A DNA stretch of 64,000 bases from Clostridia bacterium (GCA_017441945.1 JAFSBG010000165.1:1214-65213), one strand, 5' to 3'. Shown: positions 5,243 through 61,010, counted from the first letter of the stretch. Translations and numbers: made by a program. Notes: generated by a model from the letters alone, not told the origin.

Positions 5243-6493
5243 ATGAATATACATCTTAAAATACAGGAGCTCCGCAAAAAGGCAGGGCTTTCTCAGGAGG
5301 GTTTTGCCGAGCGGCTTGGCGTTTCCCGTCAGGCTGTTTCCAAGTGGGAATCGGGCGCAAGCACTCCTGACATTGAAAAAATAATCGCCATTTCCAAAAT
5401 CTTTGAAATCTCCCTTTCCGAGCTTCTGACGGGCGAAAAGGATGAGGCACCTCTCTCCGCTGAGGCTCCGGCAGAAATCGCTGTAAACGATGAAAAATAC
5501 GAGGAGCTTTTGCAGGACCATCTCCTGCAGATAGATGAGATGCTCAAAAAGGGAAAGAAAAAGCGTCTTATATGGGGCATCGCCATTATTCTTGTTGCGG
5601 TCATTGTGATTTTCGGATATCTGATCCATCACAACAATGAGCTTCACGCTCTTGAAGCCAACATCAAAACACTGCAAAGCGATATGTCCGGCATTGCCAA
5701 TATACGCACCGACATAAACCACCAGATTTATTCCATCCGTCAGGAAATTTCCGACACTTTGAAGAAGGAATACGGCATGGTAAGCGATTTTGACATCGAA
5801 TACCGCGATATGAGTTTCCCTGACCGCACAGTTGTGCTTGATATTTACGCTTCACCAAGGCTGTGGAATAACGGCGACAGAATAAGCTTTATCATTGAAT
5901 CTGACGGAGAAAGGCTGACTGTCGACGGCATTTATGAAGACGGCACCGCAACGGCAACTGTGACTGTGCCGCTCACCGACAACATTCAGGTTTCCGCCTG
6001 CATTATAAGCGGCGGCACTACCGTGCAGGAAAGGCTTGACGACATTCGCTCGCTTCTCAGCCTTCATCTTTTAGATGTTGACGGACACGGCTCAATAAGC
6101 TCGACTCACACCGAAGGCAGCGACAGTTTTACCCTTGATGGCTCTGTCTCGGTTTTTGTAAGCACCAGGCTTTACGACGAAAACAAGTCGGCAAAATCCC
6201 AGATAAACTCCCTCACTCTTGAGTTTATCGAAAACGGAAAGGCAACTCAGACTGTCGATATGTTTGAGCTCAAGCCCGACTTCAATGCCGCCGAAATGTG
6301 CAATTTCAACTATTCGTTGGACACCATTGAGCGCTCGCTCAATGCGGGGGACACCTATGAATTCGTTGTCACTCTCACCGACCTTAACAATGTGACATAC
6401 CGCGGTGTGTTGGAGCGCATTGAAATAGGCGATAATCTCACCATCGGGCACGATAAGTCATACTACGGCAGTTTTGAGGCAATTCTGCCATAA
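5243..6493 (+). CDS. membrane-anchored XRE-family (HTH_3) transcriptional regulator, paralogue A
   Basis: N-terminal HTH LSQEGFAERLGVSRQAVSKWESG, one TM (LIWGIAIILVAVIVIFGYLI) and a ~270-aa extracytoplasmic C-domain. Colinear paralogue of 9178-10449. Confidence 0.8.
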   Translation: MNIHLKIQELRKKAGLSQEGFAERLGVSRQAVSKWESGASTPDIEKIIAISKIFEISLSELLTGEKDEAPLSAEAPAEIAVNDEKYEELLQDHLLQIDEMLKKGKKKRLIWGIAIILVAVIVIFGYLIHHNNELHALEANIKTLQSDMSGIANIRTDINHQIYSIRQEISDTLKKEYGMVSDFDIEYRDMSFPDRTVVLDIYASPRLWNNGDRISFIIESDGERLTVDGIYEDGTATATVTVPLTDNIQVSACIISGGTTVQERLDDIRSLLSLHLLDVDGHGSISSTHTEGSDSFTLDGSVSVFVSTRLYDENKSAKSQINSLTLEFIENGKATQTVDMFELKPDFNAAEMCNFNYSLDTIERSLNAGDTYEFVVTLTDLNNVTYRGVLERIEIGDNLTIGHDKSYYGSFEAILP

Positions 6494-6619
6494 AATACGG
6501 AACATACGGTTTCTCTCAACAGCGGATATCCCCGATAACAGCCATCGGGGATTTATCCCATTTTTAACCTGTGTTTCATTAAATACATTAAATAATATAC
6601 ATATTTCGGAGGCATCATT

Positions 6620-7003
6620 ATGAAACAAAAAATCACATCCATCGGTACACTAATTGTCGGTCTTCTGCTGGCATTTGGCCCACAGTTTATCTTCAAGCCA
6701 TGCCCGACAACAGAAAAGTTCATGAAGTGTTTCTGGAGCTGTAAGGCTCTCATCGTTGTCGGTGCTGTAGTTGCAATTATCGCTCTTCTTCAGCTTATGG
6801 CAAAGGAAAAGGAAAGCAAGAAGCTTCTCTCGGTAGCTGCTCTCGCTCTTCTCGTTTCTGCAATTCTCATTCCAACAGTCATCATCGGCGGATGTGCAAA
6901 GCCTGAAATGGCTTGTAAGATGCTCACATTCCCTGTGACACATTCCCTCTCCGTTGTCGGCATCGTGCTTCAGGGCATCGGTCTTGCAGGCAAAAACAAG
7001 TAA
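6620..7003 (+). CDS. small 4-TM membrane protein, DUF4418-like
   Basis: 127 aa with a Cys-rich first loop (FKPCPTTEKFMKCFWSCKA) and four hydrophobic helices. The family name is recalled from memory. Such proteins accompany FtsX-type ABC systems. Confidence 0.6.
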   Translation: MKQKITSIGTLIVGLLLAFGPQFIFKPCPTTEKFMKCFWSCKALIVVGAVVAIIALLQLMAKEKESKKLLSVAALALLVSAILIPTVIIGGCAKPEMACKMLTFPVTHSLSVVGIVLQGIGLAGKNK

Positions 7004-7091
7004 ACAACGCGCTTTTCGGGTATTTTCTGTTGCTAAATCGGGAATACCCATACTGCGTTTATGAAAATATAAAATATCAAAGGAATTAAAA

Positions 7092-8303
7092 ATGATTACC
7101 CAGACTATTGCGCTTAAAAATCTCGGCCGCAGACCTGTCCGTACATGGTGCATGATTTTCTTCGTTTTCATGCTGGCAGCTTCGCTTTTCCTCAGCTCTG
7201 TCCTTGTCGACAGTATGGAAAGCACAATCGAAAAGACAACAAACCGGATGGGCGCCGATGTTATCGTTGTGCCTAAGGAATTTGAACGCGAAATGGCAGA
7301 TTCTCTCTTCCTCGGCGAGCTTTGCAACTTCACATTTGACAAGAAGTGGGTTGAAAATATCTCAGCCGTTGAAGGCGTTGCAAAGGCTTCACCTCAGCTT
7401 TATATGGAAACTCTCGATGCAGCCTGCTGTGCCGCACCTGTTCAGCTTGTGGCTTATGACCCTGAAACAGACTTTATCATCACTTCCTGGCTTGAGGACG
7501 AAAATATCCCTGCGCCAAAGAAGGGCGAAGTTATCGTAGGCTCTCTTGTAACCGCTGATGCAGAAGGCGGCGACGGCATTCTTCTCTTCAATACATTATT
7601 CCCTGTAGTGGCACATCTTGAAAAGACAGACACAAACTACGATACCTGCGTATTTATGACATACGAAACAGCTCAGGAAATCATGAGCAGTGAAAAGTGG
7701 TATGAAACATTCCGCGAAGAGCCTGTTACAGACGAGCTTGCTTCGACAGTCATGATCAGAATTGAAAACGGTGTGGACAAGAAGGATGTTGCCCGCAACA
7801 TCAACTTCAAGATGGACAAGGAATCCCCTGTTTCCGCTTACACAACAAACACAATCATGAGTGAGGCTATGGACGCTTCCGAAAGCATGAAGGGCTATAC
7901 ATCTGTTCTTATCACACTTCTTCTCGTTCTCGTAATCGTTGCTCTTGTATGCGTATTCACAATTACAATCAATGAAAGAACAAAGGAATTCGGTATTCTC
8001 TCCTCTCTCGGCGCTTCCACAGGCAAGCTCTGCCAGATAGTGCTCGGCGAGGGCTTTATTATCGGCTTCACAGGCGGTCTTATCGGCTGCGCAGTTTCGG
8101 CTGTTGTTCTTATAATCTTCAAGGGCACTCTCACAGTCCTTCTTGAGCTTCCAAGACTCAATACAGGCTTTGGCTATCTTATGATGCTGGGTGCAAAGTG
8201 CCTCGGCATCGCTCTCATCGTTTCTGTTCTGGCTTCCCTTTATTCGGCATGGAAGGTCAGCCGCAGCGAGCTTCACACACTTATCAAAGGGGAGGAATTG
8301 TAA
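7092..8303 (+). CDS. ABC transporter permease, FtsX/MacB type
   Basis: 403 aa with an N-terminal TM, a ~250-aa extracytoplasmic domain and a C-terminal FtsX domain (INERTKEFGILSSLGAS plus 3 TM). The stop overlaps the ATPase start. Confidence 0.85.
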   Translation: MITQTIALKNLGRRPVRTWCMIFFVFMLAASLFLSSVLVDSMESTIEKTTNRMGADVIVVPKEFEREMADSLFLGELCNFTFDKKWVENISAVEGVAKASPQLYMETLDAACCAAPVQLVAYDPETDFIITSWLEDENIPAPKKGEVIVGSLVTADAEGGDGILLFNTLFPVVAHLEKTDTNYDTCVFMTYETAQEIMSSEKWYETFREEPVTDELASTVMIRIENGVDKKDVARNINFKMDKESPVSAYTTNTIMSEAMDASESMKGYTSVLITLLLVLVIVALVCVFTITINERTKEFGILSSLGASTGKLCQIVLGEGFIIGFTGGLIGCAVSAVVLIIFKGTLTVLLELPRLNTGFGYLMMLGAKCLGIALIVSVLASLYSAWKVSRSELHTLIKGEEL

Positions 8304-9177: not shown

Positions 9178-10449
9178 ATGAATATTCATCTTAAAATACA
9201 GGAGCTTCGCAAGAATGCAGGGCTTTCTCAGGAGGCTCTTGCCGAGCAGCTTGGTGTTTCCCGTCAGGCGGTTTCCAAATGGGAGTCGGGCATAAATATT
9301 CCCGACATCGACAAGATCATCGCCATCTCAAAAATCTTCGGAGTTTCCCTTTCTGAGCTTCTCACGGGAGAAAAGGAGGAGACTTCGGCGGCTGAAACTG
9401 CACCTGAATCTGCCCCTGTCCCCGACGAAAAATATGAGGAGCTTTTGCAGCAGCATCTTATGCAGGTCGATGCCATGCTCAAAGAATCGGGCAGAAAAAA
9501 GCGCTCGGGCTGGAGCATTGCTTTCCGAATTATTGCGGCGGTCGTCGCCTGCTATCTGGTGCTTTTCTATGTCGACAAGCTTCAGCGTATGGAAAACAAT
9601 ATAAATAATCTCCAGAGCAATGTGGGCAATATCCGCACCGACATAAATCATCAGATTTATTCTATCCAGAAGGAGATTTCCGAAAGTTTAAAGAAGGAAT
9701 ACGGTCTTATCAGCGACTATACTCTCGACTACCGCGATATGGATTTCCCTCGCCGCACAGTTGTGCTTGATATTTCGGCTTCGCCGAGACTCTGGAATGA
9801 GGGGGACAGCATGGCTTTTATTGTTGAAACCGACGGCGAGCAGATTTCCTGCGAGGGAATTTACAACAACGGCACGGTTTATGCCGAGATTGAGGTGCCT
9901 CTCTCGGACAATATTCAGGTTTCGGCGCTTATCACCAATGGCGGCACTGTAAAGCAGGAGAAGATAGACGAACTTCACGAGCTTCTCAGTATGCATCTGC
10001 TTGAAGTGGACGGTCACGGCTCGATTCGCTCGTCACGCGTACTTGGTGATGACAAGCTGACGATGTCGGGCGATATTTCTGTTTATGTCCACAGCAGGCT
10101 TTATGACGAAAGTCAGCCTGTTTTGTCGCGCATAAAGTCGGCAACTTTTGAGCTTATTGAAAACGGCAAGGCGACACAGACTGTCGACCTGATGAAAGAT
10201 TGTCTAGACAATACTTTCGCCGGCGTTATTGACAATGTCCGCATTGATTTTGATTATACTGTAGGCACGATTGAACGCACCATGAAGGTGGGTGACACTT
10301 ATGAATTTGTGGCTACAATCGTCGACAGCAACGATGTCACTTACAAGGGCATTCTTGAAAGCATTATGGTGACAGATGACCTCTCTGTCGAGCACAACAA
10401 GCGCGACTACGGCGAATTTGAAGTGACTTTGCCGGAGAAAGTTGAGTAA
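9178..10449 (+). CDS. membrane-anchored XRE-family (HTH_3) transcriptional regulator, paralogue B
   Basis: ATG 9178 lies 8 nt after AAGGAGG. MNIHLKIQELRKNAGLSQEALAEQLGVSRQAVSKWESG, one TM and an extracytoplasmic domain colinear with 5243-6493. Confidence 0.8.
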   Translation: MNIHLKIQELRKNAGLSQEALAEQLGVSRQAVSKWESGINIPDIDKIIAISKIFGVSLSELLTGEKEETSAAETAPESAPVPDEKYEELLQQHLMQVDAMLKESGRKKRSGWSIAFRIIAAVVACYLVLFYVDKLQRMENNINNLQSNVGNIRTDINHQIYSIQKEISESLKKEYGLISDYTLDYRDMDFPRRTVVLDISASPRLWNEGDSMAFIVETDGEQISCEGIYNNGTVYAEIEVPLSDNIQVSALITNGGTVKQEKIDELHELLSMHLLEVDGHGSIRSSRVLGDDKLTMSGDISVYVHSRLYDESQPVLSRIKSATFELIENGKATQTVDLMKDCLDNTFAGVIDNVRIDFDYTVGTIERTMKVGDTYEFVATIVDSNDVTYKGILESIMVTDDLSVEHNKRDYGEFEVTLPEKVE

Positions 10450-10450
10450 T

Positions 10451-10945
10451 ATGACATTACCAAACCGAAAAAGCACAAGGCTGCCAGGATTTGATTACAG
10501 CAGCGCTAACACTTATTTCGTCACGCTGTGCACCAGAAACAAAGAAAAGATTTTATCTGAGATAACCGTAGGGAATGGCGTCCTCGACATTCCGCAGATA
10601 AAACTTTCTGCTTTCGGGAAAATTGCCGAAAAGTATATTTTACAGCTGAACGATTTTTATGGTCATATTTCGGTTGAAAATTATATTATAATGCCTAACC
10701 ATATTCATCTTCTTATACGGATAGATAATGCCTGCGGTGCGTCGGGGACGCCGCACCCTACAAATATGGAGCTTCCGAAGTTTATTTCCACATTCAAGCG
10801 TTTCTACAATAAAGAATATGGTTTTAATATCTGGCAGACTTCCTATCATGACCACATCGTCCGAAACGAAGATGATTACAATAAAATATGGCAATATATC
10901 GAAAATAATCATTTAAAATGGACTGACGATATTTATTTTGAATAG
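10451..10945 (+). CDS. REP-associated tyrosine transposase (RAYT; IS200-like Y1/HUH single-domain transposase)
   Basis: 164 aa: LPGFDYSSANTYFVTLCTRNK, HUH motif MPNHIHLLI, catalytic Tyr block WQTSYHDHIVRNEDDY. There is no TnpB or IS end. REP clusters follow immediately downstream. ATG 10451 is preferred over the overlapping TTG at 10442. Confidence 0.85.
   Translation: MTLPNRKSTRLPGFDYSSANTYFVTLCTRNKEKILSEITVGNGVLDIPQIKLSAFGKIAEKYILQLNDFYGHISVENYIIMPNHIHLLIRIDNACGASGTPHPTNMELPKFISTFKRFYNKEYGFNIWQTSYHDHIVRNEDDYNKIWQYIENNHLKWTDDIYFE
10568..10594 (+). repeat. REP hairpin embedded in frame in the RAYT CDS (GTAG head)
   Basis: GTAGGGAATGGCGTCCTCGACATTCCG, translated VGNGVLDIP. It differs at 1 position by eye from the intergenic copy at 44602-44628. 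Stem GGAATG/CATTCC, loop GCGTCCTCGA. Confidence 0.85.
10734..10761 (-). repeat. second, inverted REP hairpin embedded in frame in the RAYT CDS (CCCTAC tail)
   Basis: GCGGTGCGTCGGGGACGCCGCACCCTAC, translated (C)GASGTPHPT. It has the same loop TCGGGGACGC and CCCTAC tail as the copies at 57460 and 58471, but a private compensated stem GGTGCG/CGCACC. Confidence 0.85.
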
Positions 10946-10984: not shown

Positions 10985-11245
10985 ATTTTGTGGGAGGGCA
11001 CAGAGACCCTCCCCTACGGATATTGACCACGAAAGAACAGTTGTAGGGGCGGTTGCTTTCCGCTCCCGTGAAATATCCCCCCTGTCCTGCGGACATCCCC
11101 CCTTTAGGCAAGGGGGGCTATTAAAGAGATGTCTCCGACGGATTAAATAGGAGTCACTCCCTCAGTCAGCCTTACGGCTGCCAGCTCCCTCGTCTGAGGG
11201 AGCCAAGCGTCTTGTACGTAGGGGCGAGCATTGCTCGTCTGCTTT
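10985..11245. repeat. intergenic hairpin mosaic C (REP cluster flanking RAYT)
   Basis: REP 10992-11017 (GGGAGGGCACAGAGACCCTCCCCTAC), linker TTGACCACGAAAGAACAGTT, then REP 11043-11069 (GTAGGGGCGGTTGCTTTCCGCTCCCG). Also the GTCTCCGACGGATTAAATAGG module, the CTCCCTCGTCTGAGGGAG module, and REP 11218-11240 (GTAGGGGCGAGCATTGCTCGTC). Confidence 0.85.
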
Positions 11246-11249
11246 TTTA

Positions 11250-11531
11250 TTACGCCAGTATGATTTCCTTTAGTTTCAGCAGGTTATTGCCGCTGATATT
11301 GAGGAAAAACGGGGTGTTTGCAGGGATTCCGCCGTCATAAGTGCCGCAATACTGGAGAAACTCCGCTGCCGAGCTTGTTTCATAGAACAAATCGGCGTCA
11401 GGCTCTGTAAACTGACGATTCCAGTCGACAAACTCGAAAACCGCACCCGAAACCTTGAGTGAAATGCTTTCCTCGGTTTCGTTGTGGATATAATATCCGC
11501 TCGGCAGGTCGAGCACAGGGTCGAGCTCAAG
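11250..11531 (-). pseudogene. 3' remnant of a resident gene truncated by island insertion
   Basis: The minus-strand frame is open from the stop at 11250 up to a TAA at ~11532-11534 with no ATG (the ORF track begins at a GTG). G+C is about 48%, like the core genome. G+C collapses immediately beyond 11531. Confidence 0.5.
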
Positions 11532-11569
11532 TTACCATATTTTTCATAAAAAGATCCATCATGATCTTC

Positions 11570-11598
11570 TTGACTTTTTTATATATTTGTGTTAATAT
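11570..11598 (+). promoter_or_regulatory. candidate sigma-70-type promoter of the radical SAM gene
   Basis: TTGACT-17 nt-TAATAT, about 50 nt upstream of ATG 11648. It is bracketed by the palindromes AAGATC-N6-GATCTT (11551-11568) and AAGAT-N7-ATCTT (~11605-11621). Confidence 0.45.
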
Positions 11599-11647
11599 CT
11601 AATCAAAAGATCGAACATATCTTCTAAATAAAAGTGGAGGTTTATTT

Positions 11648-12862
11648 ATGAAAATTGGTATTATCGATGCTGATCTTCTCGACAATGGCACCCGACATCC
11701 AAACTTGGCCTGTGAAAAAATCAGCGGCTTTTACAAGGATCAGGGTAATGATGTAAAACTTATTACAAACTATAATGAAGTAGATGATTACGATAAAGTC
11801 TTTATAAGTAAGGTATTTGATTTTACAAAAGTCCCTATTGATGTATTTGATAAAAAAAGATACCCTCATATAGAGCTTGGTGGTACAGGATTCTTTTGGA
11901 GAGATTCACCTGATCTTCCTTATGAAATCGAACATCATATGCCGGACTATCATTTATATGATGAGTTTATCGGACAAGAAATCGCTCGTGGCATTAAGCC
12001 ATTGAAGTTTAAAGATTACATAGATTATTCTATTGGATTTACAACTCGTGGCTGTTTCAGAAAATGCTCTTTCTGTGTAAACGAAAAGTTTGATCATGTT
12101 TTCAGACACGCACATGTTGAAGAATTTTTGGATAAAACACGTAAATGCATTTATCTTTGGGATGATAATGTTCTTGGATATGCAAAATGGCGTGAAGTTT
12201 TTGATGAACTTAACGAGACAGGAAAGCCTTTCCAGTTCAGACAAGGCTTGGATATGCGTTTAATGACAGAAGAAAAGGCAAAAGTTTTGTCTTCTTCAAA
12301 ATATCATGGCGACTATATTTTCGCTTTCGACCATATTGAAGAACGTGATATTATTGAAGAAAAACTTAAAATCTGGCAGAAACACAGTTCACAGATTGCA
12401 AAATTGTATGTTTTGTGTGGTTATGATTCACAGGACGAGGTAGATATCGCAAACACATTCGAACGTGTTAAGATCCTTATGAAACATCATTGTCTTCCAT
12501 ACATCATGCGTCACGAATACTATTTGAAATCCAAGTACCGTGGTATATATGTAACACTTGCAAGATGGTGCAATCAGCCAAGCTTCTTCAAGAAAAAATC
12601 TTTCCGTGAATACTGTGAAGCAAATCAGGAATATCATAAGAACCCTAACACATTGTGTGCAGCTCTTTCTACAATGCGTGAATTTGAACACGATCATCCG
12701 GATATTGCAGCTAAATATTTCGATATGAAATGGGATTATCTTGGCGAAACACCTACGCAGGAATCTGACGATTTTAATGATGAACGCGAATGGAAGGACG
12801 ATTGGCAGATGGACACACCTGCTAATAATTATATCCATAATGTTGAAGGTAAGGTAAAGTAA
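11648..12862 (+). CDS. radical SAM protein (COG1032-like, Rossmann/B12-binding-like N-domain)
   Basis: 404 aa with RBS GGAGG. The CxxxCxxC cluster motif is GFTTRGCFRKCSFCV (Cys136/140/143, nt 12053-12076). Downstream blocks LWDDNVLG, FRQGLDMRL and LCGYDSQDE. Low G+C. Confidence 0.75.
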   Translation: MKIGIIDADLLDNGTRHPNLACEKISGFYKDQGNDVKLITNYNEVDDYDKVFISKVFDFTKVPIDVFDKKRYPHIELGGTGFFWRDSPDLPYEIEHHMPDYHLYDEFIGQEIARGIKPLKFKDYIDYSIGFTTRGCFRKCSFCVNEKFDHVFRHAHVEEFLDKTRKCIYLWDDNVLGYAKWREVFDELNETGKPFQFRQGLDMRLMTEEKAKVLSSSKYHGDYIFAFDHIEERDIIEEKLKIWQKHSSQIAKLYVLCGYDSQDEVDIANTFERVKILMKHHCLPYIMRHEYYLKSKYRGIYVTLARWCNQPSFFKKKSFREYCEANQEYHKNPNTLCAALSTMREFEHDHPDIAAKYFDMKWDYLGETPTQESDDFNDEREWKDDWQMDTPANNYIHNVEGKVK

Positions 12863-12870
12863 AACAATTA

Positions 12871-12901
12871 AAAAGGACTTCCAATTAAGGAAGTCCTTTT
12901 T
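12871..12901. terminator. bidirectional terminator between convergent island genes
   Basis: AAAAGGACTTCC-AATTAA-GGAAGTCCTTTT, with an A-run on one side and a T-run on the other. Confidence 0.75.
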
Positions 12902-12902
12902 A

Positions 12903-14015
12903 CTATACATTTTTCAGAATCATTTGCAATTCTTCCTCTGTACAAATAGCACTGATATATGAAAATAGTTCTCTTAATGCACCTGCTTTCCTCTGTAATG
13001 TACTACGTGTTGCACCTGCACAATTAGCTACCAGAAATTCAAGCAAATCAAAGTCTGGATCTTCTATACTATGTCTCATTATAGATACAACAATAGACTT
13101 ATCAAAAAATACATCTTTTATAATTTTATTTCTATCCTCATTTTCCATTTTCAAATAAGTCTTACCCAATTTGCTTATTTTTATTAGTTTTCCACTATTA
13201 GAATCCTCAATACTAGCAAAATTAAGAAAAGCCGCAAACTTTCCTTTTTCCTCACCAAATTTACGATTTGCACCATCAGTTGTTGATTCGCTATTACTAA
13301 AAATTGTTCTCAGTTTTCTCCCTAAATCTAAATATGAAATTCCGTCCTCATATTCACTTATAATTTTCAAAGTAGAAGGCAAATGCACCAATGTACCAAC
13401 AGGAGGAATATCTTCTAGGCTGAATGTCTGTATTTTAGGAATATCACCCATTGTTTCATCGTCTGATCTTAATAAATAATTTAATAATCCGATTTCTTCA
13501 CAATCTGAGTTTTCATCCTGACTATCTTTAATTACACTTTCATCAAATATGGTTTTTTTACCAAATTTATATCTTTTTCTCGTAATTTTCTGCAAAGTGT
13601 CTTTATCTGAATATTCTGTCTCTATATAAGTTATGTATGCTAACTCTAATTCATCATAAAAATCTTCTAGATTCTCTCCTTGTTTCCAAATATGGGAAAA
13701 ATATTTAATAAATTGAGAGATTATATACGGGTCATTTGTAGAAATACCTCCCTCAAAGTTTTCTTTTCCAGAAATAACAAACATACCGTTATTAGTAAGA
13801 TTCCCACTTGTTATCAATAAATGTCTTTCATCAACAAGATATGCCTTCATATGAAGATTTGTAACTCTTTTAACATTGTTAATATCAAACTTCTTAATTG
13901 AAAGTAAGGAATCAAAAATGGAAATGTCCGAACTTTTTTGGTATGTAAACTCACCTACATTTCCTCTAATAAGAACTTTCAAGTCGAACTCGCTTCGCTC
14001 ATCAATATTGTACAA
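12903..14015 (-). CDS. single-HKD phospholipase D-family nuclease with C-terminal non-catalytic domain (BfiI/Nuc-like layout); N-terminus probably disrupted
   Basis: HKD motif HMKAYLVDERHLLITSGNLTNNG. The ORF-track start is a TTG. The same frame stays open and PLD-like (SLVICSPYVKKDALDKL) up to a TAA at 14118-14120. That TAA is preceded by an ATG-initiated 12-codon stub (see findings). Confidence 0.7.
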   Translation of the reverse strand: MYNIDERSEFDLKVLIRGNVGEFTYQKSSDISIFDSLLSIKKFDINNVKRVTNLHMKAYLVDERHLLITSGNLTNNGMFVISGKENFEGGISTNDPYIISQFIKYFSHIWKQGENLEDFYDELELAYITYIETEYSDKDTLQKITRKRYKFGKKTIFDESVIKDSQDENSDCEEIGLLNYLLRSDDETMGDIPKIQTFSLEDIPPVGTLVHLPSTLKIISEYEDGISYLDLGRKLRTIFSNSESTTDGANRKFGEEKGKFAAFLNFASIEDSNSGKLIKISKLGKTYLKMENEDRNKIIKDVFFDKSIVVSIMRHSIEDPDFDLLEFLVANCAGATRSTLQRKAGALRELFSYISAICTEEELQMILKNV

Positions 14016-14148
14016 AGAAATTAATTTATCAAGTGCATCTTTTTTTACATAAGGCGAACATATTACAAGACTTTTTTGAGGATAATGTTTCTTAAACCAA
14101 TTATCAAAAATTTGAGATTAAACAAATGTATAATTCAAATAAAAATAT

Positions 14149-14643
14149 TTATTCATGTACATATCCTAATTCTTTCAGTTGATCTGGAATTTTCTGTCCT
14201 GTTGCTATTGGGAACCAATTCAATCCCAATTCTATGTAGCAACGTTGTCTGAAAAGATTATTTGGGTCTTTAAGTACTCTCTTCTTATTTTCATCTTCAT
14301 CAAAAGTAAGTTCAATGCCATAACCTGACATCAAGAGTTTAGACTTCATATCATCTCTTATTTTTGGCCCTGCAAAGGCAATAATTGCAGGGATTGGCGC
14401 TGATATACAATCATCAAGTGCGTATGATAACTTTTCATACGCTGTACCATCAGTAAACTGTACTTTACATTCAACACCAATATATTTATTATTATCTTTA
14501 TTTCTAACTACTATATCAAGTCTGCGCGGAGTTCCCATAAATCTGGCTCCAACATTTACCTCTACCATAGCTTCAAGATTTTCACCCCAGCTATTTATGT
14601 AATTTACTATTTCGTTTTTGAAATCATCAGCTGCACCTGCCAT
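14149..14643 (-). CDS. PD-(D/E)XK-fold nuclease (restriction endonuclease-like)
   Basis: ATG 14643 lies 7 nt after AAGGAGG. The core is GTPRRLDIVVRNKDNNKYIGVECKVQ, giving D...E-x-K. 164 aa, low G+C, and upstream of and coupled to the PLD gene. Confidence 0.65.
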   Translation of the reverse strand: MAGAADDFKNEIVNYINSWGENLEAMVEVNVGARFMGTPRRLDIVVRNKDNNKYIGVECKVQFTDGTAYEKLSYALDDCISAPIPAIIAFAGPKIRDDMKSKLLMSGYGIELTFDEDENKKRVLKDPNNLFRQRCYIELGLNWFPIATGQKIPDQLKELGYVHE

Positions 14644-14722
14644 ATTTGAAACCTCCTTATAAACTATAATCACCTTATATCACAATGGTAGACATTTGTC
14701 AACTATATTTTCAGACAAAATT

Positions 14723-14750
14723 AAACCCCTGATTTTCTCAGGGGTTTTGT
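14723..14750 (-). terminator. terminator of the M24 peptidase operon
   Basis: AAACCCCTGA-TTTTC-TCAGGGGTTT. The T-run is on the minus strand. Confidence 0.7.
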
Positions 14751-19299: not shown

Positions 19300-19505
19300 G
19301 TGGAAATGAATTGATGCTGTGCATCATGAATTGATTTAATCATGAATTGGCTGCGCCATGAATTGCATCAAAGATGCATTTAGGTGTGAGGCAAGCTCAC
19401 ATTTGATAGGCAACAACCCCTCCGTCTTGCTATCGCAAGCCACCTCCCCGATAATGGGGGTCCCCGCAAAGCCTGCTTTGTGGGGTGAATTCACAGGGGA
19501 GGCTT
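19300..19505. repeat. intergenic hairpin mosaic D
   Basis: ATGAATT-word array with four words at 19306, 19326, 19342 and 19358, each followed by a mini-hairpin. Then GTGTGAGGCAAGCTCACATTTGATAGG, CTCCGTCTTGCTATCGCAAGCCACCTCCCC, and GGGGTCCCCGCAAAGCCTGCTTTGTGGGGTGAATTCACAGGGGAGG. Confidence 0.85.
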
Positions 19506-52980: not shown

Positions 52981-53400
52981 AAAGCCTTCCCTGCATAAGG
53001 GGAGGCTTTTTTGTTGTGCGGGGTGTGGAGGACGATTACATACATTTTCAATGATGCCATACGCTTCACAATTACATACACCTGCGGTGATTACATACCG
53101 CTGTGCGGATATAAGGTGTTGCTATGCAACTGATTTATTAAGCGGGCGGGCATGGAAACCCGCCCCTACGGATTGACTACGAAAGAACGGTTGTAGGGGC
53201 GGTGGTTCCATCCCCGTCCGCAGGAGATGTAATAAGTAAAAGTGAATAGTGAAGAAGTGCGGTGTGATACCCCAAGGGCACTTACGCAAGTCACATTTGG
53301 TAGGTTTCTCTCCCTCCGTCACTTCGTGACACCTCCCCGATAATGGGGTCCCCGCAAAGCCTGCTTTGTGGGGTGAATTCACAGGGGAGGCAAGAGTATG
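52981..53400. repeat. intergenic hairpin mosaic T
   Basis: AGCCTTCCCTGCATAAGGGGAGGCT + T-run, a reversed GTATGTAATC array at ~53033-53135, and REP 53142-53169, linker, REP 53193-53221. Also reversed TTCACT words, GTGTGATA..GTCACATTTGGTAGG, CTCCCTCCGTCACTTCGTGACACCTCCCC, and GGGGTCCCCGCAAAGCCTGCTTTGTGGGGTGAATTCACAGGGGAGGCAAGAG. Confidence 0.85.
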
Positions 53401-60429: not shown

Positions 60430-61010
60430 TGCGATGCATTGGATAGGGCGGGAGCGGCAAGCGGCTCCCCCACGCACACATCCTTTGCCTCTCCTGTGAA
60501 TTCACCCCACAAAGCAGGCTTTGCGGGGACCCCATTATCGGGGAGGTGCCCCAACGGGGCGGAGGGGTTGTTCCCTATTTAATTGCCTAATATGCCGTAG
60601 GCACACCTTGTAAAATGGGGTTTCCAAAGGGGCGTAATTTACCCCAAACGACAGGTCGTTCGGGGACCCCGCAAAATTAAATAAATGCGGCGACACTCGT
60701 CGCCGGTCGCACCCCGGTGCTCCTGTGGTCAGGTGGTCAAACTGCCTGACTTTCACCCCAGACAGCAGGCTGTCTGGGGTGTGAATCAAGGGGATGCTTT
60801 ATTCGGGAGGGCGCGGAGACCCTCCCCTACGATTTGACCACGAAAGAATAGTTGTAGGGGCGGGTTTCCATGCCCGCCCGCGGGACGTCGGGGGCGCCGT
60901 CTCCTACAATGGGATTGTGCCATTGGGGTGGAAAGATTCTTCGCGAGCAACGGGGTCCCCGGGCGACCTGTCGTCTGGGGTGAATATCAGAATGACATTG
61001 CATTGCGCGG
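60430..61010. repeat. intergenic hairpin mosaic X
   Basis: CTGCGATGCATTGGATAGG, REP 60450-60473, reversed GGGGTCCCC..TGAATTCACAGGAGAGG, GGGGACCCCGCAAAATTAAATAAATGCGGCGACACTCGTCGCC.., GGTCAAACTGCCTGAC, and CACCCCAGACAGCAGGCTGTCTGGGGTG. Then REP 60805-60830, linker, REP 60854-60881, REP 60882-60907, and GAAAGATTCTTCGCG. Confidence 0.85.

Follow-up and report, generated by a model that had tools for sequence, protein, structure and literature searches.

The 64,000-nucleotide stretch of Clostridia bacterium DNA analysed here (GCA_017441945.1 JAFSBG010000165.1:1214-65213; hereafter the window) carries a three-gene cassette that is probably a restriction–modification (R-M)-like system, in which a radical S-adenosylmethionine (SAM) protein would write a self mark on DNA and two nucleases would restrict. 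This protein, of 404 amino acids in the window, and its homologues are called R below. An initial annotation had proposed a methyltransferase-less module with self-modification by R, and the proposal is supported by the linkage of R to restriction modules in cellular genomes, by its solitary occurrence in phages and by the recurrence of the trio. R would use a [4Fe-4S] cluster and SAM to put a non-classical mark on host DNA, perhaps at or near GATC-containing sites; chemistries conceivable for its fold are methylation or methylthiolation of an unactivated carbon, or a backbone change. DNA without the mark would be cut by a PD-(D/E)XK nuclease and by a phospholipase D (PLD) nuclease, the latter a putatively dimeric, single-HKD enzyme bearing a winged-helix DNA-binding domain (C-dom), and GATC palindromes around the R promoter probably link the expression of R either to its binding or to the modification state. 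We infer from the comparisons below that R acts on DNA and that its mark protects against the nucleases, and likewise the target site and the role of the palindromes. The principal features are as follows (ORF, open reading frame; HMM, hidden Markov model).

11531-14722, no strand: low-G+C island with the three-gene cassette (G+C content; cassette found in other genomic contexts)
11648-12862, + strand: R, radical SAM enzyme, 404 amino acids (ORF, motif, AlphaFold model, Foldseek)
12869-12902, no strand: bidirectional intrinsic-terminator hairpin with a 14-bp stem, between the convergent genes (terminator scan)
12903-14162, − strand: single-HKD PLD nuclease with C-dom, interrupted here (Pfam, comparison with near-identical contigs)
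12906-13502, − strand: C-dom, winged-helix plus helical, with motifs LPPVG, RKFGEEKGK and STLQRK (alignment, HMM, model)
13785-13853, − strand: HKD active-site motif HMKAYLVDERHLLITSGNLTNNG (H, K, D, S, G and N invariant in 42 homologues)
14149-14643, − strand: PD-(D/E)XK nuclease, 164 amino acids (PDDEXK_11; D43, E58 and K60; stop codon overlaps the PLD start)

Neighbourhoods of R in cellular and viral genomes

A scan of cellular genomes, one per species, gave 80 loci from Bacillota, Bacteroidota, Actinomycetota, Chloroflexota, Verrucomicrobiota and others, in which neighbours were assigned by ORF clustering and then by Pfam and PADLOC searches on representatives. A restriction-type module was found beside R in about 62 of the 80 loci, overlaps counted, and the remainder were mostly short contigs or prophages. 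The modules were distributed as follows.

31 of 80 loci: PbeA (HKD plus SF2 helicase, E 1e-219), PbeC (CxC-type ABC ATPase, E 8.5e-103) and a protein of ~145 amino acids
14 of 80 loci: ParB-like protein, 137-amino-acid protein, SNF2 helicase and 330-amino-acid protein
4 of 80 loci, in Clostridium: DndF (E 3.6e-144), DndG (E 2.5e-116) and a 1315-amino-acid protein
5 of 80 loci: GmrSD_N/DUF262 protein beside R
6 of 80 loci: window-type PD-(D/E)XK homologue beside R
4 of 80 loci: window-type PLD homologue beside R

Co-occurrence of R homologues with nucleases thus extends across genomes, R being the constant neighbour of at least five restriction-type modules, and the R loci inspected showed neither a methylase gene nor a dnd modification gene. 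One or both of the window-type nucleases stand beside R in about 8 of the 80 loci, and the PLD gene is accompanied by R in every examined locus that extends past it; locus L086 ends at the PLD gene and shows the PD-(D/E)XK–PLD pair only. The trio lies next to a DDE transposase in L084, next to an integrase and a relaxase in L085, and between opp and HAD genes in L102 and L103. L101 has PLD and R without PD-(D/E)XK, and PD-(D/E)XK and R occur without PLD in L007, L008, L013 and L060, the first of which is cultured Flavonifractor plautii ATCC 29863, where both genes are undamaged and their G+C resembles that of the host. Either nuclease is thus able to form a pair with R alone, as expected if R plus one nuclease is the minimal working unit. 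Partner nuclease or helicase genes are broken beside an intact R in the window, L012, L050, L071 and L074, an anecdotal series, and the only broken R is that of L062, a locus that has already lost the partners. This asymmetry agrees with R marking self.

R-like proteins are encoded in 17 GenBank phage records, in one of which (PV036431) the gene adjoins a DNA methyltransferase gene. In the prophage loci L070, L077 and L080, R is located in the replication region, and in L080 it adjoins a ParB-methylase. IMG/VR contained 205 R-encoding contigs, and in 77 of the best 80, which were analysed, R stood without any partner; the other three also contain C-dom or Pbe-type genes. Flanking the 77 solitary copies are 142 ORFs, which include 30 N6/N4 methylases, 13 C5 methylases, 11 ParB_N proteins and one each of Mom, D12 methylase and Eco57I-type methylase, so that DNA methylases or Mom make up 46 of the 142. 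A solitary phage R among methylases bears the signature of orphan anti-restriction modification genes, and because phage R stands alone among DNA methylases, this setting is the strongest single argument that R modifies DNA. The flanks of R in viral loci L105-L183 also hold four thioredoxins, two PAPS-reductase-domain proteins, one SAM decarboxylase and one 4Fe-4S single-cluster protein, possible redox or sulfur-chemistry helpers of phage R.

The viral copies also bear on the abortive-infection alternative that had been raised beside the R-M-like one. R might be an effector or signal generator, which makes a toxic or signalling nucleotide in the manner of viperin or damages nucleic acids by radical chemistry, with the nucleases as co-effectors. 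Prokaryotic viperins are radical SAM defence effectors that work without partners. Ophion, likewise, has a radical SAM effector, with PHP and PRTase partners (bioRxiv 10.1101/2025.09.30.679545). R shares with both the anti-phage context; its short form has no DNA-binding domain, and the DNA mark is something we infer. Unlike viperins and Ophion, however, R pairs with nucleases or helicases, or stands as an orphan beside phage DNA methylases, and its solitary occurrence among such methylases in viral loci is hard to explain for an effector. R is moreover fused to or paired with winged-helix and other DNA-binding domains, its partner modules usually read modification state, and it stays intact when the partners decay. 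We therefore regard an effector role as unlikely, and abortive infection as less likely than the R-M-like reading.

In the R-M-like reading, the nearest comparisons are with systems that combine modification and restriction. The Dnd/Ssp phosphorothioate systems, in which DndABCDE or SspABCD accompanies DndFGH, PbeABCD of the CxC-ABC ATPase system or SspE, are similar in having one modification unit and interchangeable restriction modules, as R stands upstream of PbeA/PbeC, DndF/DndG or GmrSD-like proteins; they differ in that the R loci checked have a single radical SAM gene instead of DndA-E or SspA-D. No Dnd, Pbe or Ssp proteins were detected in the window island by Pfam, PADLOC or NCBIfam. 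Such modules have been described as partners of phosphorothioate genes or of methylation genes (cytosine methylases), and no radical SAM partner appears there, supplement included (PMC10853773). The Dpd 7-deazaguanine systems resemble the R loci in being modification and restriction islands with ParB-like and SNF2 proteins, and the R-linked SNF2 protein matches DpdE (E 5e-35); unlike them, R systems have neither the DpdA transglycosylase nor the queuosine-precursor pathway, and R is not QueE.

The predicted proteins of the cassette

The 404-residue ORF with CFRKCSFC at Cys136/140/143 is as first described. The three cysteines (CxxxCxxC) are invariant in an alignment of 42 homologues, in which C282, C308 and C323 in the C-terminal part are also conserved and could hold a second cluster. 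The AlphaFold model (mean predicted local distance difference test (pLDDT) score 86.9) has a Rossmann-like N-domain, a (βα)6 partial TIM barrel that begins at the Cys motif, a helical C-terminal part and a disordered acidic tail (residues 365-404). The top Foldseek matches were MtaB, MiaB, AprD4, TsrM, HemN and RimO, with a Foldseek probability of 1.0 for MiaB, MtaB, AprD4, TsrM and HemN. Pfam PF04055 scored 15.4 bits against a cutoff of 29.5 and covered only residues 132-167, the cluster loop. Because the family is too divergent for the PF04055 profile, membership rests on motif and fold, by which R is a genuine radical SAM enzyme with predicted catalysis.

R belongs to no family in Pfam, NCBIfam 20.0 or PADLOC 2.0 beyond that sub-cutoff cluster loop, and PHROGs labels it only as "radical SAM domain protein". 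Its homologues number 6331 matches, many at 60-86% identity, none of which has a precomputed Pfam domain or a meaningful name, and an exhaustive profile search gave 397 clusters (50% identity) at E ≤ 1e-30. A Protein Data Bank (PDB) sequence search with the R profile returned nothing significant, and a plasmid search gave distant matches only, at 27-37% identity. Assignment as QueE or NrdG was rejected, NCBIfam NrdG2 scoring 13.8 bits against a cutoff of 131.

The methylthiotransferases MiaB, MtaB and RimO act on nucleic acid or protein. They share with R a Rossmann-like N-domain followed by a radical SAM barrel (Foldseek E about 1e-6, probability 1.0), with a TM-score of only about 0.45 and an identity of 13-14%. 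R might on this basis modify RNA, for example tRNA, or a small molecule, its adjacency to nucleases reflecting shared mobility in defence islands; its best structural matches are tRNA methylthiotransferases, and Pfam sees the cluster loop only. Against such a role, R differs from the methylthiotransferases in that residues 1-130 contain no conserved cysteine, and hence no N-terminal (UPF0004) triad, in that Pfam finds no TRAM domain, the C-terminal part being helical in the model, and in the extra C-terminal C282, C308 and C323. In addition, R lies immediately beside restriction modules across phyla and is often fused to a partner domain, and the phage copies adjoin DNA methylases, not RNA-modification genes. 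A role in RNA or small-molecule modification is thus very improbable. The COG1032/B12-binding-like architecture suggested at the outset held for the Rossmann-like N-domain; no B12-binding Pfam family was found at E 0.1 or better, and although TsrM and AprD4 match structurally, MiaB and MtaB are nearer by Foldseek than the B12-type enzymes. AprD4 is itself not known to be cobalamin-dependent.

Some R homologues are split by a LAGLIDADG/intein-like insertion, as in P0338 and in LC711081 (plasmid match H18, uncultured archaeon), the latter annotated [quoted passage not shown]; inteins typically reside in conserved DNA-metabolism enzymes. In long-form R, the linker at residues ~365-430 between the core and C-dom (e.g. 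P0096, P0089) has four conserved cysteines (CxxC...C-x7-9-C), possibly a zinc-binding module. The short-form R of the window is without this linker and has the disordered acidic tail instead.

C-dom connects R to the PLD nuclease. Over its C-terminal 200 residues, the PLD protein aligns with the extension at the C terminus of long-form R (~630 amino acids; BLASTP E 3e-9 and 8e-9) and with proteins of ~230 amino acids encoded directly after short-form R, the common motifs being IPQ[FY]S/LPPVG, [RK]K[YF]GE[NE][HK]xK and ST..R[RK]. The C-dom HMM matched in 51 of the 80 cellular loci. In the PLD protein model (pLDDT 85.9), a disordered acidic linker precedes C-dom, which consists of three helices and a β-hairpin followed by further helices; it is called winged-helix from this secondary structure, the Foldseek result for the whole PLD protein being dominated by the PLD half. 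A PDB sequence search with the C-dom profile gave nothing significant, and PADLOC 2.0, NCBIfam 20.0 and Pfam contain no model for it. The mean pairwise identity is 42% for C-dom versus 71% for the R core, so C-dom diverges faster. Other R homologues bear other DNA-binding domains. These features point to C-dom as a DNA-binding or specificity module of R systems.

The profile search also showed C-dom fused to LexA-type S24 peptidase and sigma-70-like domains. In the Bacteroidota-type operons of loci L094-L100, C-dom is joined to an S24 autopeptidase (~395 amino acids) or to sigma-70 region 2 (371-403 amino acids), and a third fusion type (~355 amino acids) has an N-terminal part without a domain match. 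The fusions close operons of the order R, ParB-like protein, 137-residue protein, SNF2, 330-residue protein and large sigma-like protein, which may point to a switch that responds to damage or to a signal in such systems. In L020 (Clostridium cavendishii), the gene of a 500-amino-acid Ser/Thr protein kinase (6008-7510) lies just upstream of R–DndFGH.

The two nucleases of the window were largely borne out. The PD-(D/E)XK ORF at 14149-14673 encodes 164 amino acids from the ATG at 14643, behind AAGGAGG, or 174 from an upstream GTG; the ATG is the likely start because 164 amino acids is the length called in related contigs. The 164-residue core (D43...E58-C-K60) matched PF20472 (PDDEXK_11) at 44.1 bits, above the cutoff of 23.7 (E 2e-11), and gave no PADLOC match and nothing significant against PDB sequences. 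The single HKD motif (HMKAYLVD...TSGN) likewise stands: the PLD protein matched Pfam PLDc_2 at 35.1 bits (cutoff 27, E 1e-8), and its N-terminal half has a PLD fold by Foldseek, with Zucchini, Nuc, NucT, SauUSI and BfiI as matches; having a single HKD motif, the enzyme is presumably dimeric. It has 47 homologues.

The BfiI-type layout seen in the PLD protein at first was only partly upheld. Like BfiI-type type II R-M systems, the cassette is compact and mobile, with linked convergent genes for a protector and a nuclease, and in the nuclease a single-HKD PLD domain at the N terminus is combined with a DNA-binding domain at the C terminus. Unlike them, the window cassette has no SAM-dependent methyltransferase, a radical SAM protein is the candidate modifier, and a second nuclease, PD-(D/E)XK, is co-transcribed. 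Membership of the BfiI type was rejected: the domain order agrees, but only the PLD half matches BfiI, and the C-terminal helix-helix-helix-hairpin domain is specific to R systems and is not the BfiI DNA-binding domain. No ORF of the island contains a methyltransferase domain, as had been noted, and classical R-M was rejected accordingly. DISARM was rejected as well, since similarity to DrmC is weak (PADLOC best E 2e-11; NCBIfam 26.9 bits against a cutoff of 133), there is no DrmA, DrmB or methylase in the island and the domain layout differs. The trio is thus not a named system, as the initial annotation had surmised: PADLOC gave no match for R or for the PD-(D/E)XK protein, and only the weak DrmC match for the PLD protein. 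A full-text literature search, in which the 2020 ABC-ATPase/CxC classification was not covered, found no paper on R, C-dom or the trio, and none in which a radical SAM enzyme is connected with Pbe, DndFGH or PLD nucleases.

GATC palindromes upstream of R and the proposed mark

The region upstream of R contains three features.

11551-11568, no strand: GATC palindrome 1, AAGATCCATCATGATCTT, abutting the -35 element of the R promoter (motif class found upstream of R in many loci)
11570-11598, + strand: promoter-like TTGACT-17-TAATAT, with TG before the -10 element (consensus match only)
11607-11623, no strand: imperfect GATC palindrome 2, AAGATCGAACATATCTT, between the -10 element and the ribosome-binding site (sequence inspection)

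The promoter and its two bracketing palindromes, described beforehand as possible operators, are real, and the motif recurs across the R family. Window-type cassettes have AAGATCC-N4-GGATCTT and AAAGATCA-N3-ATGATCTTT upstream of R, DndFGH-, Pbe- and GmrSD-type loci have GATCGAA-N6-TTCGATC between the -10 element and the ribosome-binding site, Flavonifractor has GATCA-N7-TGATC, and GATCTTG at the -35 element also recurs. In the 150 bp upstream of R in 83 non-identical regions, GATC was observed 119 times versus 28.2 expected from the same loci, a 4.2-fold enrichment (Poisson P 5e-37, a value that counts related loci as independent); the remaining 15 palindromic tetramers ranged from 0.4- to 1.84-fold. 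The phage and prophage copies inspected (e.g. L070, L077, L080, L087, L088) showed no upstream GATC. As to the operator reading, the sites are real and conserved, but an operator for a repressor is only one way to read them: because the half-site spacing varies and the motif also occurs in loci without C-dom and without a candidate repressor, a dedicated repressor is disfavoured. Binding by R, or sensitivity to its mark, is the speculative reading that we favour.

Over the whole window, the observed/expected ratios were 0.08 for CTAG, 0.25 for GGCC, 0.32 for GATC and 0.41 for CCGG, which suggests a lineage long exposed to restriction at these sites. GATC occurs once per 265 bp in the island versus once per 842 bp in the window, about threefold richer. 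Genome-wide avoidance of GATC was rejected as a clue to the target, since the observed/expected ratio of GATC is low in host loci (0.66) as well as in R-bearing viral loci (0.54), and other sites are depleted too.

Several points weigh against R as the writer of a self mark. Short-form R has no recognisable DNA-binding domain, and C-dom is not obligatory, since the loci that pair R with PD-(D/E)XK lack it, as do some Pbe-type loci. The relatedness of the loci tempers the GATC statistic, and the palindromes could bind a host factor instead. The PLD gene of the window is interrupted, so that this copy may be partly inactive, and as the source is a metagenome-assembled genome (MAG), the clustered substitutions described below could be assembly errors. 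Finally, DndFGH and Pbe-type modules have been argued to be modification-independent in many genomes, in which case linkage to R would be no proof (PMC10853773).

In a broader form of the self-mark reading, R would represent a large class of radical SAM enzymes, unrecognised so far, that modify DNA by making a chemically new epigenetic or backbone mark, possibly at GATC-containing sites; this mark would be the self signal for at least five restriction machineries, phages would counterfeit it, and the R promoter would respond to the modification state. We put this forward tentatively, as rather less than an even prospect. The marks known to distinguish self from non-self DNA are methylation, phosphorothioation and 7-deazaguanine, and a radical SAM enzyme as direct marker would, if confirmed, add a new chemistry to them. 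It would also explain what some "orphan" restriction modules read, and give a function to a phage family annotated only as "radical SAM domain protein". The frequent occurrence of DndFGH and Pbe-type modules without dnd genes has been raised as a puzzle (PMC10853773). Members of the R family are widespread among Bacillota, Bacteroidota and Actinomycetota of the gut and rumen, where a mark of this kind could affect the interpretation of long-read base-modification signals, phage therapy and the ease with which these anaerobes are manipulated genetically. The question is open to direct tests in cultured carriers. Besides F. plautii ATCC 29863, these include Clostridium cavendishii DSM 21758 and C. 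hydrogeniformans DSM 21757, in which R accompanies DndFGH, Mitsuokella jalaludinii DSM 13811, in which it accompanies a Pbe-type module, and Anaerovibrio lipolyticus LB2005.

The interrupted PLD gene and the island

The remaining features lie at the 5' end of the nuclease operon and at the right edge of the island.

14118-14120, − strand: premature TAA, GAA in relatives (within five clustered substitutions)
14674-14702, − strand: promoter-like TTGACA-17-TATAAG, 5' of the nuclease operon (read by eye; the sixth -10 base is G, so it was missed by the scan)
14723-14747, no strand: hairpin terminator 3' of the M24 peptidase gene, at the right island edge (terminator scan)

The suspected stop in the PLD gene proved real. 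The frame that starts at ATG 14162/14156, overlapping the 3' end of the PD-(D/E)XK gene, reads MNKYFYLNYTFV, then the TAA at codon 15, then SQIFDNWF..., and the PLD ORF that remains in the window (12903-14015, − strand) encodes 370 amino acids with HMKAYLVD...SGN. By contrast, three metagenome contigs that are 99.85-99.93% identical to window positions 1648-22855 carry an intact PLD gene, which encodes 419 amino acids. Two of them, compared base by base, showed 7 and 10 differences from the window, of which five, common to both, fall within 47 bp (14113, 14120, 14132, 14155 and 14159; G>T, C>A, C>A, T>A and C>A on the + strand). All five alter the PLD protein, one of them turning a conserved Glu codon into TAA, and two also alter C-terminal residues of the PD-(D/E)XK protein (GYGQE to GYVHE). 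The cluster could be a mutational cluster, the outcome of selection against a toxic nuclease or a MAG assembly error.

Because of this stop, the window copy is at best R plus the PD-(D/E)XK nuclease. In this genome, the cassette might then be a decaying remnant without current defence, in which the PLD gene is a pseudogene and the rest is kept since loss of R is harmful or the change is recent. The replacement of a conserved Glu by a stop amid five non-synonymous changes speaks for decay, as does the absence of all five changes from the three contigs that are 99.9% identical, and the next canonical start after the stop costs 49 residues of the PLD domain. However, R is identical in the three near-identical contigs by exact-protein lookup, the PD-(D/E)XK frame is intact, and a two-gene form of R and PD-(D/E)XK stands alone in other genomes. 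The substitutions may moreover be assembly errors, and the NCBI record (protein IJN37_09765) annotates a 402-amino-acid product that begins just after the stop. On balance we consider decay of this copy a serious but lesser possibility, roughly one chance in three.

The island itself was confirmed by windowed G+C, which drops from 0.45-0.53 to 0.28-0.38 across about 11500-14700; the content of 11531-14715 is 0.324 versus 0.461 for the whole window, with 0.465 in the left and 0.488 in the right flank. The spot counts given earlier were reproduced exactly (0.383 at 11641-11700 and 0.200 at 13081-13140), and the terminator scan found both the bidirectional terminator shared by the convergent R and nuclease genes and the M24 terminator that the right edge was said to abut. 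The claim that the left edge truncates a resident ORF was not confirmed: the ORF there (11250-11516, − strand, 88 amino acids) has no detectable relatives or domains, with no match in Pfam or NCBIfam, and is conserved in the near-identical contigs. Insertion is supported because homologous cassettes, at 40-76% protein identity, occupy unrelated neighbourhoods in other genomes, but neither a flanking repeat nor an empty site was found; the edges share no direct or inverted repeats above chance 8-mers, and contigs with the identical M24 gene (390-amino-acid version) carry the island or end at the gene. Judged from sequence, the island appears to be a mobile, horizontally acquired three-gene cassette.

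Directly to the left of the island, at 10442-10945, lies a gene for a RAYT/IS200-like REP-associated tyrosine transposase (NCBIfam E 1.4e-13, below cutoff), followed by G+C-rich palindromic non-coding DNA at 10990-11240. A 63-bp G+C-rich repeat is present in at least three copies in the window (19441-19503, 53330-53391 and 60487-60548), and these copies may be REP elements that match the RAYT gene.

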